Assembly: GCA_030640665.1 (NCBI GenBank)
Contig: DAOWIY010000020.1
Span: 1-34,668 of the forward strand
Direction of reading: 5' to 3'
Source of the DNA: Clostridia bacterium
GTDB taxonomy: Bacteria; Aerophobota; Aerophobia; Aerophobales; AE-B3A
DNA: 34,668 nt
Below the pieces are notes generated by a model. That model had not been told where the DNA came from and ran no database searches. It worked only from the letters and a program-made list of their open reading frames with translations. Shown one piece after another: positions 1-9,460 of the stretch; positions within the stretch are counted from its first letter, which is position 1, and every line of letters starts with the position of its first letter. The position numbers and the translations under genes are program-made.

Positions 1-189
1 GTATATTTTTCTTTTTCCTCCACTCGAAGCCTCGTTAAGGTAGCTTCTATAAGCAATCAGAATTGCTTTACGGAATATATAAGGCTCCTTCAGAAAATGT
101 CCTTCGGCAAGCGTATAATAAGAAATGCCTCAGGACATTTCCCGAGTTTCTTGCGAGGCTTTTACTCCCATTTTTTGAAAGGAATAATC

Positions 190-2532: not shown

Positions 2533-2760
2533 ATGCAAGATAAAATAGAAGACATAATGAAGGAGTATAAGGATGAGTGGCTCTTGATAAAGGTTTTAAA
2601 GACGGATGAATTAGATAGGCCGAGAGAAGGAAAACTGATTTTACACAGCAAAAATAGGGATGAAATTTACGAGAAACAAAGGAAATTGAAAGATGACCTA
2701 TATATAACCTATTCTGGGAAAATTCCTAAAAAAGGATATGCGGTGGCTTTTAATGGCTAA
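2533..2760 (+). CDS. Small protein (DUF5678-like), partner of the downstream protease
   Basis: GAGGAGG RBS; Y-x-x-EWLLI...G-K-LILHS-x-x-RDEIY pattern; overlaps the downstream start. Confidence 0.75.
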   Translation: MQDKIEDIMKEYKDEWLLIKVLKTDELDRPREGKLILHSKNRDEIYEKQRKLKDDLYITYSGKIPKKGYAVAFNG

Positions 2761-3136
2761 GTTAAAGTTCGATCCCAGTCTTCCCGTTATCGTTTTAGAT
2801 GTAACTTTAGAAGGTAAGATAGTAAAAAGAAGGATAAAGATGGCTGTGGATACGGGAGCAACTTACACGATGATTCCATGGGAGATAGCAGAAGCATTGG
2901 GTTATAGACCTGATATCTCTGTACAAAGGGTGACTTTGATCACGGCGAGCGGAATAGAAAGAGCACCTTTAATTAAAATAGATTCGTTAAGAGTATGTAA
3001 TAAAGAAGTTAAGAACGGAAAGGTAATCTGCCATGATTTACCTCAAAAAAGTTATGTTGATGGATTATTAGGTTTAAATACCCTTAAAGAACTTAAGGTA
3101 AAGATAGATTTCGGTGAAGCAACGATAGAAGCCTAA
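2753..3136 (+). CDS. Retropepsin-like (clan AA) aspartic protease
   Basis: AVDTGAT catalytic motif, ITASG flap, DGLLGLN motif; likely start ATG 2753 (MAKLKF). Confidence 0.88.
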   Translation: MAKLKFDPSLPVIVLDVTLEGKIVKRRIKMAVDTGATYTMIPWEIAEALGYRPDISVQRVTLITASGIERAPLIKIDSLRVCNKEVKNGKVICHDLPQKSYVDGLLGLNTLKELKVKIDFGEATIEA

Positions 3137-4137: not shown

Positions 4138-5505
4138 CTAGCCAAGAAATAATTTCCCCACCTTGTTTATATCCCCTGCGCCTAGAGTAAGTATTAAATC
4201 TCCTTCTTTTGATTCTCTTTTTAAAAAATTGATCATTTCCTTAAAGGTAGGAAAATAATATGTTTGTTTTCTTCGCTTTTCTTTAACTTTTTCAAATAAC
4301 AGTTTTCCGTCTATTCCAGGAAGGGGATTTTCTCCCGCAGCGTAGATGCTGGTTAAAAGAAGAATATCTGCTCTTTCAAAAGAGTGAGCGAATTTAGAAA
4401 GAAGCATTTTAGTTCGGCTGTAACGGTGAGGTTGGAAGATGGCAATTACTCGTCTTCCCAGTCTTGCTGCTGCTTTTAGGGTTACTTCAATCTCGGTAGG
4501 GTGATGAGCATAATCGTCCACTACTAAAATGCCGAATTTTTCTCCTATTACCTCAAACCTTCTTTTTATTCCCTTAAAAAGAGAAAGGGCTTCTTTAATT
4601 TCATTCCATTTTATTCCCAGAGTTATTCCTACGCCAATGCTGGCTAAGGAGTTATATATATTGTGTTTTCCAGGTAAAGAAAGATTTATATTTCCCATAC
4701 TTCTGCCTTTATAGTTAACCTCATAAGAAGAGCCAAATTGTTCCAGTTTTATATTCTCTGCTAAAAGGTGAGCAGGGGAGTTGATTCCATAGATGATTAA
4801 TTTTTGAGAAGCGGCTAAAGAACTTCCTTTTAGAACCTTATCCAGGCCAGGATTATCTTTATTAATAATCAAGGTTCCTCCAGGTTTTAACCTTCTAAGA
4901 AATTGAATAAATGCTCCGAAGAGCCTAGCCTCCGAGCCATAATAGTCCAGATGATCATCTTCTAAGCTTGTAAGAACCGAGATTTTGGGAGAGAGAAATA
5001 AAAAAGAGCCATCAGATTCATCACTTTCTGCCACTACATATTCGCTCTTGCCTAATTGGCTATTGCCGCCAATATCATTAAGTTCCCCCCCAATAAACAT
5101 AGTAGGATTTTTACCTCCTCGGTGAAGAAGCGAGCAGATGAGAGAAGTAGTAGTAGTTTTTCCATGAGTTCCAGCGACAACAATCCCTTCCTTTTCATTG
5201 ACCAGCTCACCCAAAAGGGCACCTCTTGAGATAAGAGGAATTTTTTTTCTTTTTGCTTCTTGAACTTCAGGATTGAGAGAAGGGATGGTGGAAGAGGTTA
5301 CTACTAAGTCGGCTCCTGCAAGATGAGAAGAGATGTGTCCCTGATAAATAGTTGCTCCTCTTTTCTCCAGGTGCTCTGTAAGGGTGTTCTTTTTTCTATC
5401 CGAGCCACTAATGAGGTATCCTTTCTCTAACAGCACTTTAGCTAACCCACTCATTCCAATTCCCCCGATGCCTATAAAATGGATGGATCGAACCCCTTTT
5501 AGCAT
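4138..5505 (-). CDS. murC: UDP-N-acetylmuramate--L-alanine ligase
   Basis: HFIGIGGIGMSGLA, GTHGKTTT, ESDESDGSF, DDYAHHPTE, FQPHRYSR. Confidence 0.97.
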   Translation of the reverse strand: MLKGVRSIHFIGIGGIGMSGLAKVLLEKGYLISGSDRKKNTLTEHLEKRGATIYQGHISSHLAGADLVVTSSTIPSLNPEVQEAKRKKIPLISRGALLGELVNEKEGIVVAGTHGKTTTTSLICSLLHRGGKNPTMFIGGELNDIGGNSQLGKSEYVVAESDESDGSFLFLSPKISVLTSLEDDHLDYYGSEARLFGAFIQFLRRLKPGGTLIINKDNPGLDKVLKGSSLAASQKLIIYGINSPAHLLAENIKLEQFGSSYEVNYKGRSMGNINLSLPGKHNIYNSLASIGVGITLGIKWNEIKEALSLFKGIKRRFEVIGEKFGILVVDDYAHHPTEIEVTLKAAARLGRRVIAIFQPHRYSRTKMLLSKFAHSFERADILLLTSIYAAGENPLPGIDGKLLFEKVKEKRRKQTYYFPTFKEMINFLKRESKEGDLILTLGAGDINKVGKLFLG

Positions 5506-6614
5506 AGCTTTTTCCCCATCTCACAGACTAACTCCGCCATTTTCCTGGCAGCTTGAGGTCTGCCTAACTTCTTACTTTGTCTACTCATTTTTTCAAGCAG
5601 AGGTTTGTTGCCTATTAAGTCTAAAAGTAATTTTTTTAGCCTTTCTTTAGTAAGGTTCTTTTCAATAATAATACAGGCTGCTCCTTTTTCCTGTAGGATT
5701 TTAGCGTTCTTGTATTGATGTCCTTCTGCAGCATAAGGATAAGGGATGAGGATACTGGGTAGTCCCAGGGCAGTAATCTCAGCTATAGCTCCCGCTCCAC
5801 TTCGGCAGATGACCAAGTCAGAAGCGGCGTAAGCATATCGTATTTCCTCTAAGTAGGGAAAAGTCAAGGATTTAATCTCCAAAGATTTAAGGAAGTCTCT
5901 TGCCCATTTTACATCGTTTCTTCCAGTGATAAATATTACCTGAATTTCTGTAGCTATCTTTTCTTTATCTAATAGTTTAATCGCTTCTGCTCCAGATTTA
6001 TTTAGACTGTGAGCTCCTTGACTGCCTCCCAGGAAAAGAAGGGTAAATTTGTTTTTGTCTAAATCGAGCTTCTTTATTCCTTCTTCTCTTTTTGCCTTGA
6101 GAATTTCAGAGCGGATGGGATTACCAATGAGCTGGATCCTATTTTTTACTCTTCGGGACAGATACTCATTTGTTTGAGCCCAACTGGTGGCTATTTTTGA
6201 GGCGTACCAGGAAAGAAACCTGTTGGTAAGGGAGGGATATACATTCTGTTCACATATAAGGCTCCGAATACCAAAAAGGAAAGCAAGCGTCACCACCGGA
6301 TATGAGTGAAAACTACCCATTCCTATTACTATGGACGGTTTAAATTGCCAGAGAATGAGGAAAGATTGGAAAAAGGATACCACCAGGCTTACCCCAAAGC
6401 TGACCCATTTTATAGATAAGGCTCTGGGAAAAGTTTGAGTCTTTATCTGCTTGAATTCAAATCCCTGCAAGGGGATAAGCTCTCTCTCCAAATCTTTTTT
6501 TCCTGCTACCCAGAGGATACGGCTAACTAAATGGTGTTCTTTGAGGTAAGAGGCTATGGCTAAGGCTGGATAAAGATGGCCTCCTGTGCCCCCGGCGGCT
6601 ATTAAGATTCTCAT
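5499..6614 (-). CDS. murG: Lipid II N-acetylglucosaminyltransferase
   Basis: AGGTGGHLYP, EQN, GNPIR, GGSQGA, CRSGA, HQYKNA. Confidence 0.97.
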   Translation of the reverse strand: MRILIAAGGTGGHLYPALAIASYLKEHHLVSRILWVAGKKDLERELIPLQGFEFKQIKTQTFPRALSIKWVSFGVSLVVSFFQSFLILWQFKPSIVIGMGSFHSYPVVTLAFLFGIRSLICEQNVYPSLTNRFLSWYASKIATSWAQTNEYLSRRVKNRIQLIGNPIRSEILKAKREEGIKKLDLDKNKFTLLFLGGSQGAHSLNKSGAEAIKLLDKEKIATEIQVIFITGRNDVKWARDFLKSLEIKSLTFPYLEEIRYAYAASDLVICRSGAGAIAEITALGLPSILIPYPYAAEGHQYKNAKILQEKGAACIIIEKNLTKERLKKLLLDLIGNKPLLEKMSRQSKKLGRPQAARKMAELVCEMGKKLC

Positions 6615-7738
6615 CTTTTCCGCATTCTACTCCTTCTCCAGCTATAAATTACTGGTGTGGCCACAAAAATGGAGGAATATGTTCCTATTACTATTCCTAC
6701 TAAAAGAGCAAAGGCAAATCCATGGATTACGGCTCCTCCCCAGAGGAATAAAATTAGAACCACCAGGAAAGTAGTTAAGGAGGTGATAACCGTGCGAGAT
6801 AAAGACTGATTGATGCCCAGGTTGAGAATCTTTTTAGAGGATGTTCTTTTCTTTCGGTAGACCTCAGAATTTTCCCGAATTCTGTCATAGACAACAATGG
6901 TATCGTTCAAGGAATAGCCAATTATGGTAAGTAGAGCAGCTATTATAGGAAGGGTAAATTCATAACCTCCCAGGGTTAGGGCTCCTACGCTGATGAAGAC
7001 ATCATGAACCAGGGCAACTACTGCTCCCACAGCAAACCTTAACTCAAACCTCCAGGCAATGTAGGCGAGCATGCCTACCAGGGCAAAGATTATGGCTAAA
7101 ATAGCATCTTTCCGAAGCTCCTTACTCACTTGAGGACTTATGAAATTGGAGCCCTCAAGTGAGAATGTGTTTTTTTCTCCCCCAAACTCTTTTTTTATAG
7201 CTTCTTCAATTTTTGCACTTGCTTTTATAGGAATGATGCGGTAAAGAATAAGAGAAGCGAGAGAGTCTTCTGTTGCCTGGTTAATATCAATTCTCTCTTC
7301 TTGGGAGGGGTCAAGGGTGAAGAAATTGGCTAGATTTTCATATCCTAGTGCCTCTATTTCAGGAATATTTTTGAGTTCCTCCAGACTTGTAAATTTACCT
7401 TGTTTTTCTCGATAAGCAATTATTTTTGAGGCTATATTCTGAGAAGCTTCCTCTACTTTATGTTTTATAAGGATAAGATTTTCTTCTTTTCTACCATATT
7501 GCTGTATGACTGCTTTGCTTAAACCAATTTCAGCCAGGACCCCTCTTATCCAAGCAATAGAAGGAGATTCACTGAACTTAAGATGAACTTCAACTCCCCC
7601 TGTGAAGTCCAGGCCCAGTTTTAATCCTCCTCTTGAAATAATCAAAAAAAGAGTAGCGGCTATCATTATCCCTGAGATGATGAAAGCTTTCTTCCTTAAG
7701 GCAATAAAATCTATCTTTGTTTCTCCAAAAAATCGCAT
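6611..7738 (-). CDS. secF: Protein translocase subunit SecF with extracytoplasmic helix-hairpin-helix insertion
   Basis: GLDFTGG, GYSLNDTIVVYDRIRE, SRTVITSLTT, GTYSSIFVA; extra ~70 aa at residues ~97-165. Confidence 0.95.
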   Translation of the reverse strand: MRFFGETKIDFIALRKKAFIISGIMIAATLFLIISRGGLKLGLDFTGGVEVHLKFSESPSIAWIRGVLAEIGLSKAVIQQYGRKEENLILIKHKVEEASQNIASKIIAYREKQGKFTSLEELKNIPEIEALGYENLANFFTLDPSQEERIDINQATEDSLASLILYRIIPIKASAKIEEAIKKEFGGEKNTFSLEGSNFISPQVSKELRKDAILAIIFALVGMLAYIAWRFELRFAVGAVVALVHDVFISVGALTLGGYEFTLPIIAALLTIIGYSLNDTIVVYDRIRENSEVYRKKRTSSKKILNLGINQSLSRTVITSLTTFLVVLILFLWGGAVIHGFAFALLVGIVIGTYSSIFVATPVIYSWRRSRMRKR

Positions 7739-7749
7739 TAGAGTTTCTC

Positions 7750-9051
7750 CTAGATACTCAGTTTTTTTATGGGTTTTCCTGCTATTAGTAAGTTAAAGAT
7801 AACCCGAGTTACCACTACGGCCGTAAATAAACTGGCCAGGATTCCAATGGATAAAGTGATAGCAAATCCTTTTATCGGGCCGCTGCCAAATTGAAGAAGA
7901 ATAAGAGCAACAATCAAGGTGGTGATGTTTGCATCGAGGATGGTTCTCAGAGCCTTATTATAGCCGGCATCTACTGCTGAGCGAGGAGCTCTTCCTTCCT
8001 TTAGCTCCTCTCTTATTCTCTCGAAAATGATAACATTAGCATCAATACTCATCCCGATGATAAGAATGATTCCAGCAATACCGGGAAGGGTTAGAGTTGC
8101 TTTTAAGGCGGCCAGGGCTCCTAATATAAAGAGTAAATTTAATAGAAGCGCCGCATCAGCAATTAAGCCCGCTTTCTTATAATAAAAAATCATAAAAAGG
8201 ACAACAGCGAAGAAACCAATGAATCCCGCTAGAAGACCCTTCTGGATAGAATCTTTCCCCAGGGAGGGACCTACAATAGTGTTCTGAATAATATCAAATG
8301 GAATGGGCAAAGCACCGCTTCTGAGAACAATCTTTAGTTCGTTAGCCTCCTCCATGGTAAAGTTTCCTGTAATCTGCGCCTTACCACCAGAAATACGAGT
8401 CTTTATCACAGGAGCAGATTGAATTACGTTATCTAATATTATAGCCAGTCTTTCTCCTACATGTTGGCCCGTAATCTCAGCAAATTTCTCTGCTGCCTCA
8501 GGCTTAAAATCTAAACCTATGTAAGGCTCTCCCCATTGTCCAATTTCTACCCGGGCGTCTTTAATATCATTACCCGACAAAAGAGCCTTCTTTTTTACCA
8601 GGTATGGCTTTTTCTTTGAGTTTTCATATTTATAAAGTATCTCGTCTTCGGGGGGGATATTTCCTTGAAGAGCCTTATCTATGTCTCCTTTTTCGTCTAC
8701 CAGTTTGAATTCCAGAAGGGCAATTTTTCCAATGAGTTCCACTGCCCTTTGTGGATCTTCTATTCCTGGTAAATCTACGACTATTCTTTTATCCCCTTGG
8801 CGAGCGATGCTGGGCTCCCTTACTCCAAACTGGTCAATTCTATTTCTGATAATCTCCAGTCCTAAATCTACCGCATCTCTAGGACTTTCTCCCTCAGGAA
8901 GTTTGCTAGTATCTGCTTCCAATATAACATGCATACCTCCCTTTAAATCTAAGCCCAGGTTTATCTTTTCTTCAAGAGGATAGATAGCCCAGATGGCTAA
9001 AGTTGCCACTCCTATTATAAATAATATTAACCATTTACTGTATTGATACAT
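7750..9051 (-). CDS. secD: Protein translocase subunit SecD
   Basis: LGLDLKGG, RNRIDQFGV, VGPSLG, DANVIIFERIREE, ILDANITT. Confidence 0.97.
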   Translation of the reverse strand: MYQYSKWLILFIIGVATLAIWAIYPLEEKINLGLDLKGGMHVILEADTSKLPEGESPRDAVDLGLEIIRNRIDQFGVREPSIARQGDKRIVVDLPGIEDPQRAVELIGKIALLEFKLVDEKGDIDKALQGNIPPEDEILYKYENSKKKPYLVKKKALLSGNDIKDARVEIGQWGEPYIGLDFKPEAAEKFAEITGQHVGERLAIILDNVIQSAPVIKTRISGGKAQITGNFTMEEANELKIVLRSGALPIPFDIIQNTIVGPSLGKDSIQKGLLAGFIGFFAVVLFMIFYYKKAGLIADAALLLNLLFILGALAALKATLTLPGIAGIILIIGMSIDANVIIFERIREELKEGRAPRSAVDAGYNKALRTILDANITTLIVALILLQFGSGPIKGFAITLSIGILASLFTAVVVTRVIFNLLIAGKPIKKLSI

Positions 9052-9065
9052 CTAGCACTCCCTAA

Positions 9066-9267
9066 AATTCGTTGCTCGTTGCTCGCCTCTCGTCGATTAA
9101 TCTTTTTGATTAAGTTTGTGAACATATGAGATTCGTGATCAATTTTTTCCAAATATACTCTTTTTTCTTTTCATTATTTATAACTCGTATTTTGTTATTC
9201 GTACCTTGTCAATCATTTATTTTTTTCTTCTTTTCGAGATACGAACGACGAGCAACGAGATACGAAT
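9066..9267. repeat. Inverted pair of heptamer arrays (9066-9095, 9235-9267) enclosing a putative four-helix-bundle 3' remnant
   Basis: aattcgttgctcgttgctcg... and ...cgagatacgaacgacgagcaacgagatacgaatt; minus strand between them reads LEKIDHESHMFTNLIKKIN. Confidence 0.8.
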
Positions 9268-9346
9268 TGGTCGGGGCGACCGGATTCGAACCGGTGACCT
9301 CTTGCGCCCCATGCAAGTGCGCTAAACCAGGCTGCGCTACGCCCCG
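9268..9346 (-). tRNA. tRNA-Pro(GGG)
   Basis: CGGGGCG acceptor, CTTGC-ATGGGGC-GCAAG anticodon arm, GTTCGAATC T loop, encoded CCA. Confidence 0.97.
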
Positions 9347-9460
9347 AAGTATTTTTTAGGTCTATTTATACGCTTACCGAAAGACATTCCTCGAAGAAGC
9401 TGAGTAGAAATAATCCAAAGCGGATATACAGCGACAGAGAGGAATTGTCCTGAGGTACTC

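Follow-up and report, generated by a model that had tools for sequence, protein, structure and literature searches.

SecDF is the proton-driven motor that pulls exported proteins from the SecYEG channel, and current mechanistic models treat the P1 head of SecD as the part that is active in the periplasm and the P4 domain of SecF as a passive base. The SecF analysed here is encoded on a stretch of 34,668 nucleotides (GenBank assembly GCA_030640665.1, contig DAOWIY010000020.1, positions 1 to 34,668; the whole stretch is called the window below), deposited under the name Clostridia bacterium and placed by GTDB in the Aerophobota, referred to here as Aerophobetes. The names borne by close relatives in the databases likewise point to Candidatus Aerophobetes. 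Inside its P4 domain this protein carries an insert of about 67 residues that, on profile and alignment evidence, is a permuted and degenerate helix-hairpin-helix (HhH) unit of the kind found in the DNA-binding domain of ComEA. Most of the Aerophobetes genomes that could be assessed have the insert, which has probably lost the features by which ComEA grips DNA; we tentatively regard it as an accessory module of the periplasmic SecDF machinery.

Identity and position of the insert

Every test run identifies the open reading frame (ORF) at 6611..7738 (minus strand, 375 residues) as SecF. The membrane domain (SecD_SecF_C, residues 191-369, 6632..7168, minus strand) matches PF02355 at 222.4 bits (cut-off 20.5), the Sec_GG motif after the first membrane helix matches PF07549 at 21.3 bits (cut-off 20.3), and the protein scores 295.2 bits against TIGR00966 (cut-off 160). 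The whole protein was modelled with AlphaFold (51-row alignment, mean predicted local distance difference test score, pLDDT, 75.4), and a Foldseek search with this model returned the SecDF structures 5yhf, 5xap and 3aqp at E values from 4.6e-13 (5yhf) to 3.9e-12 (3aqp). The P4 domain, a ferredoxin-like core carrying the insert, occupies residues ~47-200 (7139..7600, minus strand) in the loop between the first two membrane helices. The source genome (1.01 Mb in 116 contigs, 84.5% complete) encodes an Omp85/BamA protein, from which we assume an outer membrane and a periplasmic position of P4.

The original prediction, made from the DNA letters, was that SecF carries a ComEA-like HhH module in its extracytoplasmic domain, with the two halves of the ComEA signature in permuted order and an altered hairpin. 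A hidden Markov model scan bore out the first of these points. The Pfam family HHH_3 (PF12836) matches residues 99-141 over profile positions 23-65 of 65 (E 4.1e-12, 46.5 bits, cut-off 27); a 69-residue piece taken alone gives E 7.9e-14 and 52 bits, and a search of the whole genome recovers the region at the same place. The inserts of relatives reach 23-44 bits, mostly above the cut-off, and the domain pair SecF plus HHH_3 is visible in the precomputed Pfam annotations of database entries. As a sequence match, this is far beyond chance. In hhalign, a profile built from the inserts of 22 genomes matches the profile of the phylum's own ComEA proteins with a probability of 98.4% (E 4.7e-15); the ComEA structures 8dfk (E 2.7e-5) and 8dss (E 9.8e-5) are matched by it as well. 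Scores against the comE model TIGR01259 (27.9, cut-off 152.35) and against TIGR00426 (29.5, cut-off 53.1) both fall below the cut-off.

When aligned with Aerophobetes SecFs that have no insert, the protein shows about 67 extra residues, cleanly bounded by 'AS(K/E)' and '(M)SAKIE'. The insert proper is thereby placed at residues ~106-172 (7223..7423, minus strand), where it follows strand beta3 and precedes native helix alpha2 in the ferredoxin-like core. An insert at residues 97-165 (7244-7450) had been predicted; the letters quoted for it are present, but the insert proper reaches slightly further towards the C-terminus. The canonical HHH_3 order is not found in it: only profile positions 23-65 are colinear, and the first helix of the unit is placed last. 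When SecF was compared by BLASTP with the ComEA ORFs of the lineage, residues 102-143 aligned with the second helix of the first HhH motif (HhH1) and all of HhH2, that is, with the last two thirds of the unit, while residues 148-163, the 'IDINQA...L' helix, aligned with the first helix, whose place in ComEA is upstream of the rest. Residues 99-141 (7316..7444, minus strand) thus correspond to the second helix of HhH1 and the whole of HhH2 (helix, altered hairpin P-E-I-E-A-L-G, helix), and residues 149-163 (7250..7294, minus strand) to the displaced first HhH helix, R-I-D-I-N-Q-A-T-E-D-S-L-A-S-L, in which N153 is invariant. On these alignments the insert is a permuted ComEA-type unit with the helix order h2-h3-h4-h1. 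The permutation read from the letters is therefore real, and so is the altered hairpin, which is P-E-I-E-A in this SecF and P-G-I-E-A in most relatives.

A search with the insert among 1.84 billion representative proteins suggests how the permutation may have come about. The best matches were proteins with three to seven tandem HHH_3 units; SecFs made up 2 of the best 150 of 1364 matches, both of Aerophobetes type. In a tandem HHH_3 array the second half of one unit and the first helix of the next are contiguous, so that the insert resembles a register-shifted slice of such an array, and we infer that it arose as one.

The P4 domain was also modelled separately with AlphaFold (model m04cdafd8154f, 22-row alignment, pLDDT 84.4, predicted template modelling score 0.74, insert blocks at 85-94). 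Over the insert, pLDDT is 82-94 in the whole-protein and P4 models. Both models, as assigned by DSSP, have predicted helices at 98-113, 119-124, 126-131 and 133-137 and one long helix at 157-185, which joins the displaced first HhH helix to native alpha2 without a break; alpha2 itself was placed at residues 172-185 (7184..7225, minus strand) from the same assignments and from the alignment with insert-less SecFs. VIA-align superposes the P4 model on the SecDF P4 structure 2rrn with the insert looped out (Z 7.6, root-mean-square deviation 3.0, 79 aligned residues, model range 9..166) and on 3aqp at Z 6.8. The wide VIA-align list for the model of P4 with the insert is filled by ferredoxin-like folds, and a Foldseek search of the same model against the Protein Data Bank gave no match at E <= 0.001.

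Distribution, selection and gene context

The phylum is represented by 31 species-level genomes, and SecF was found in 29 of them; no SecF was found in G002, and only SecD in G009. The region of the insert could be assessed in 28 genomes (the SecF fragment of G013 starts after it), and the insert is present in 24 of these; in G019 only its C-terminal part is visible, at a contig end. An artefact of a single genome, which the original prediction had named as grounds for giving up a functional role, is ruled out by this lineage-wide presence. The four genomes with an insert-less SecF are G025 and G026 (family f4), G027 (f5) and G029 (f6), and the insert is kept in five of the seven family-level groups. 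Among protein database sequences it occurs in 96 of 119 clusters (the query plus 118 matches of at least 290 residues, two shorter rows having been dropped). A search of contigs with one very specific pattern found 14 loci, all of Aerophobetes type; with a pattern so specific, these loci say nothing about other phyla. Some of the 14 are labelled 'uncultured Clostridia' or 'bacterium', and several insert-bearing SecF records of Aerophobetes type (L069, L071, L072, L074, L076) bear the title 'uncultured Clostridia bacterium', apparently a labelling problem.

To follow gain and loss, SecF trees were built without the insert columns; their root is not fixed, so that families f4 and f5 may never have had the insert. 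G028, which has it, and G029, which does not, belong to the same genus and are sisters at 100/100 (29-row tree, three partial rows left out). A FastTree built from the 119 clusters puts P0113, which has no insert, inside a starred clade (99*) of 40 insert-bearing rows, to one of which it is 89% identical; P0098, P0099 and P0105 form a group at 100* with P0026, which has the insert. To explain this tree, the insert state must change no fewer than five times, and starred branches force three of these changes. The nesting of insert-less rows suggests that the insert is old in the phylum, and by these trees at least two nested lineages have lost it cleanly.

Two other features of these SecFs were observed. 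G028 holds two SecD/SecF pairs (contigs C47 and C76), one with the insert; the second pair is more distant (52% identical over residues 176-367, in a 320-residue frame) and could be a paralogue or contamination. The SecFs of genus g3 (P0020-P0071, 447-453 residues; L008, L009, L011-L013) have a Lys/Arg-rich cytoplasmic C-terminal tail of ~75 residues ending in K-K-K-R-R, and insert-less SecFs of 345-360 residues have a shorter tail of the same kind.

Averaged over pairs, sequence identity is 0.52 for the insert and 0.61 and 0.45 for its two P4 flanks. Ratios of nonsynonymous to synonymous substitution (dN/dS, Nei-Gojobori) in eight close pairs were 0.17-0.60 for the insert, 0.20-0.55 for the P4 core and 0.08-0.22 for the membrane domain; another two were saturated, and comparisons inside a single genus do not count as independent of one another. 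By these measures the insert is under purifying selection and evolves like the rest of P4, unlike junk.

ComEA-like units were also sought in the SecFs of other families. Of 90 genomes sampled, 27 matched a P4 query; eight SecF loci, chosen for frames of at least 345 residues or for a match into the insert, were examined, and seven were scanned with Pfam. HHH_3 lies inside P4 in two of the seven, those of G070 and G109 (23.6 bits with E 5.5e-5 and 22 bits with E 1.8e-4, both below the cut-off). The G070 protein has relatives labelled Candidatus Coatesbacteria, and HHH_3 is matched at E <= 0.01 in 10 of its 120 database relatives. Against the Aerophobetes ComEA profile, SecFs of this Coatesbacteria type (393-409 residues) align at 93.8% (E 1.8e-7, 65 columns) and a second group, of 392-432 residues, at 85.5% (E 5.7e-6, 64 columns), in both cases over the whole unit and in canonical order. 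In the Atlas, the named clusters nearest to the SecF of the window are SecFs of 391, 392 (a cluster of 2423 members) and 407 residues, most often labelled Acidobacteriota (feature score 0.96, structure TM 0.77); an Atlas search with the P4 part gave scores of 0.76-0.82, which serve as leads only.

Like the Aerophobetes proteins, the Coatesbacteria-type and 392-432-residue SecFs have a ComEA-type unit inside P4, and its second hairpin glycine is likewise lost (P-G-I-P, P-G-M-S or P-G-M-T). They differ in the canonical helix order h1-h2-h3-h4, an enlarged first hairpin and Pfam scores of 16-24 bits, below the cut-off. As read by eye, their units come after a helix that resembles native alpha2 and run into beta4, whereas the Aerophobetes unit precedes alpha2. 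If this reading is right, the units lie on opposite sides of alpha2 and the two arrangements would represent separate captures.

Other P4 inserts are of different kinds. The fused SecDF of G043 (L088) and its relatives P0391 and P0392 have a P4 insert of ~230 residues that starts in the Aerophobetes order and contains the motif 'x-[DN]-[LA]-N-T' three times. In P0391 and P0392 it may consist of highly degenerate HhH units in tandem, which Pfam and hhalign did not confirm: the Aerophobetes insert profile aligned with the single long SecFs P0392 (G043-type) and P0395 at 6.7% and 4.6%, leaving homology unconfirmed, and Pfam found no HHH_3 at E <= 0.1 in P0391, P0392, P0394, P0395, P0398 and P0290. 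Non-HhH inserts of ~70-100 residues were seen in P4 in other phyla (L091 from G067, L089 from G059, P0286, P0317, P0336, P0345 and P0380); one group with such an insert, of 387-394 residues, includes a Candidatus Krumholzibacteriota entry. From these sequences, P4 looks like a permissive site, a hot spot for domain insertion in which ComEA-like units are a recurrent passenger.

In the window, secD (7750..9051, minus strand, 433 residues) lies directly upstream of secF and encodes the P1 head (PF22599, 126 bits), the N-terminal part of P1 (PF21760, 92 bits) and a SecD_SecF_C membrane domain (PF02355, 84 bits). The genes secD, secF, murG and murC form one tight minus-strand run (4138-9051); secF and murG overlap at the stop of the one and the start of the other, as do murG and murC, and secD-secF are translationally linked to murG-murC. 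A tRNA-Pro (GGG) gene at 9268-9346 (minus strand) lies between secD and a MerR-family gene, and the 77-residue ORF at 9126-9359 (plus strand) that overlaps it is probably no gene. A 132-residue ORF at 2738-3136 (plus strand) with a retropepsin-like aspartyl protease domain (PF13975, 60 bits) also lies among the housekeeping genes. The genes of the window are ordinary housekeeping ones, with no DNA uptake, competence or nuclease genes among them.

A possible role for the insert

Two roles had been suggested for the insert from the letters: coupling of the SecDF motor to extracytoplasmic DNA or another polyanion, and a structural adaptor. To judge the first, we compared the insert with ComEA at the positions concerned with DNA. 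The two G-h-G hairpins of HHH_3 are not found in it. The first hairpin is gone, with a continuous helix in its place, and at residue 129, which HMMER aligns with the glycine of the second hairpin, 20 of 22 SecF inserts have E, one has K and one has N. On the other hand, both hairpins are intact in all 22 ComEA-like ORFs of the phylum, the first as G-I-G and the second as G-[IM]-G, and 21 of the 22 have a basic residue three positions further on. In Bacillus subtilis ComEA the DNA contacts are backbone amides and lysines, and K164A and K199A lower transformation more than 100-fold and K193A and K197A less, according to Ahmed et al. 2022 (PMC9747964). Mapped by alignment and a constant offset of 56, a correspondence of our own, these lysines fall in the 22 inserts at I102 (for K164; I 20, A 2), residue 131 (for K193; V 14, I 6, L 1, M 1), N135 (for K197; N 18, E 2, K 1, T 1) and residue 137 (for K199; A 8, V 6, I 4, L 2, T 2), and the four positions are non-basic in 21-22 of 22. 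The net charge of the inserts ranges from -5 to +2, the insert of this SecF being at -5 with an isoelectric point of 4.5. Judged by these residues, the insert has lost the features by which ComEA grips DNA, and it probably does not bind DNA in the manner of ComEA.

ComEA-like ORFs, of ~125-260 residues and with HHH_3 scores of 61-107 bits across almost the full profile, were found in 20 of the 24 insert-bearing genomes and in all four insert-less ones. A substitution of the insert for ComEA is ruled out by this coexistence. G010, a genome of the same genus, has such an ORF; the source assembly, at its 84.5% completeness, yielded no stand-alone ComEA, and it contains ComEC. The sole other HHH_3 match in the source genome is at the C-terminus of a 395-residue cytoplasmic radical-SAM-type protein (contig C89, L002 562-1749, plus strand), with a canonical P-G-V-G hairpin. 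With the hairpins and lysines altered as described and canonical ComEA alongside, coupling of SecDF to extracytoplasmic DNA is unsupported, and a structural adaptor would be the better fit.

We favour the view, with a probability of roughly 0.4, that the insert is a non-DNA-binding accessory module of the periplasmic SecDF machinery that would act by protein contact or steric effect. The unit would fold as a small helical knob on P4. As the last insert helix is predicted to run straight into alpha2, the knob would be rigidly mounted there and could make contact, for example, with secretory chains as they emerge, with the mobile head of SecD or with an envelope protein nearby. Its clean deletion in close relatives suggests that it is useful but not essential. 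The recurrence of ComEA-like units in the P4 domains of other SecF lineages, again with the second hairpin glycine lost, was counted in favour of this view.

Several observations weigh against such an accessory module. No partner or contact of the insert was identified; a complex prediction for the SecD P1 head (19-row alignment) with the SecF insert (22-row alignment) gave a score of 0.00 (mark 0.32), which counts neither way. SecD, including its P1 head, is 70-80% identical throughout between insert-bearing and insert-less genomes, with no obvious co-variation. The HhH fold of the insert is itself predicted, from sequence profiles and modelled helices. Repeated clean loss would also fit a nearly neutral decoration. 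As regards DNA, G132 is present in 21 of 22 inserts, and with the G-[IV]-G found three residues downstream in 4 of the 22 a shifted hairpin is possible. HhH domains bind phosphates mainly via backbone amides, so that the loss of side chains is not decisive, and homology to a DNA-binding domain together with location in the compartment of ComEA keeps DNA or polyanion binding alive.

It is unlikely, although not strongly so, that the insert is a tolerated decoration, a ComEA-type unit that landed by chance in a permissive P4 site, stays folded only because an unfolded insert would harm SecF, and has no ligand. The nested clean losses, at least two, and the four insert-less genomes agree with this, as do the absence of visible SecD co-variation, the acceptance by P4 of unrelated inserts in other phyla (G067, G059 and the 387-394-residue group) and the finding that the conserved residues are mostly those of the HHH_3 fold core. 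Against it, five of seven family-level groups keep the insert at a dN/dS like that of the rest of P4, and lineage-specific surface residues are conserved (E129 in 20 of 22, N135 in 18 of 22). What is more, chance explains poorly why ComEA-like units, differently arranged, should also be present in the P4 domains of several unrelated SecF lineages. That recurrence could be taken further. ComEA-type units would then have been captured at least twice, on either side of P4 alpha2, permuted before it in Aerophobetes and canonical after an alpha2-like helix in the Coatesbacteria-type and 392-432-residue SecFs. The SecDF motors that carry them would form a class, so far unrecognised and spread over several phyla, whose second periplasmic head binds a ligand, either unfolded secretory chains or a phosphate-rich polymer. 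We regard this extended proposal as doubtful.

Improbable, in our estimate, is a module that tethers extracytoplasmic DNA, lipopolysaccharide, polyphosphate or a similar polyanion to proton-driven SecDF. Its case lies in the periplasmic position and the homology to the ComEA DNA-binding domain, in a genome with ComEC in which no stand-alone ComEA was found, and in the nearly invariant G132 together with HhH-DNA contacts that are largely backbone-mediated (PMC9747964). It is opposed by the acidic residue in the aligned hairpin (20 of 22), the absent first hairpin, the non-basic residues at the four lysine positions and the acidic to neutral charge of the insert; canonical ComEA in G010 and in 20 of 24 insert-bearing genomes leaves no gap to fill, and the window is without competence or nuclease genes. 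A docking site outside the SecDF cycle for another envelope machine (e.g. YidC, periplasmic loops of SecYEG, periplasmic chaperones, peptidoglycan enzymes, or the pilus/ComEC) is scarcely likely, since among the tests made no partner gene co-varies or is linked, although HhH-like modules are protein adaptors elsewhere (by analogy with GspK, to which the matches here are sub-threshold) and secD-secF are here translationally linked to murG-murC.

A conserved, rigidly mounted P4 module derived from a DNA-gripping domain, in more than one arrangement and in several uncultured phyla, suggests that P4 can have its own function. Sister genomes that differ in the insert provide a natural presence/absence system for it. 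The case is also a warning for annotation: an HHH_3 match in a periplasmic protein need not mean DNA binding.

Comparison with known systems

The original prediction had not recognised this fusion as one already described, and full-text literature searches for SecF or SecDF with helix-hairpin-helix and for SecDF with ComEA agree, returning no description. Within reach of these searches, a SecF with an inserted, permuted and degenerate ComEA-type unit appears to be undescribed.

The insert shares with the ComEA DNA-binding domain (PF12836; 8DFK, 8DSS) a periplasmic location, the helices and the core residues (Y-R, G-x-F, E-L, I-N-x-N). ComEA, however, is a free or anchored protein, whereas the Aerophobetes unit is an insert in SecF. 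Unlike ComEA, it is permuted, has lost one hairpin and has Glu for Gly in the other, and is without the B. subtilis lysines and the SLBB-like N-terminal part.

An HhH-like module is used structurally in GspK, a minor pseudopilin of the type II secretion system. To this protein the insert bears a resemblance only: PF03934 scores 12.2-16.2 bits against 24.2 and NF037980 28.6 against 130, and there is no pilin fold in the insert.

The SecDF proteins of Thermus thermophilus and Deinococcus radiodurans (3AQP, 5XAP, 5YHF; P4 2RRN) have the same membrane domain, the same ferredoxin-like P4 core and the secD-secF order that is also found here. Their solved P4 domains comprise ~90 residues and have no insert, whereas P4 of Aerophobetes adds the ~67-residue module, predicted to be helical, before alpha2. 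A precedent for such an addition exists in the other subunit of the machine. The SecD P1 head (PF22599), which has a known substrate-handling role, is a mobile domain inserted in a ferredoxin-like periplasmic base; it differs from the SecF insert in fold, in host subunit and in insertion point.

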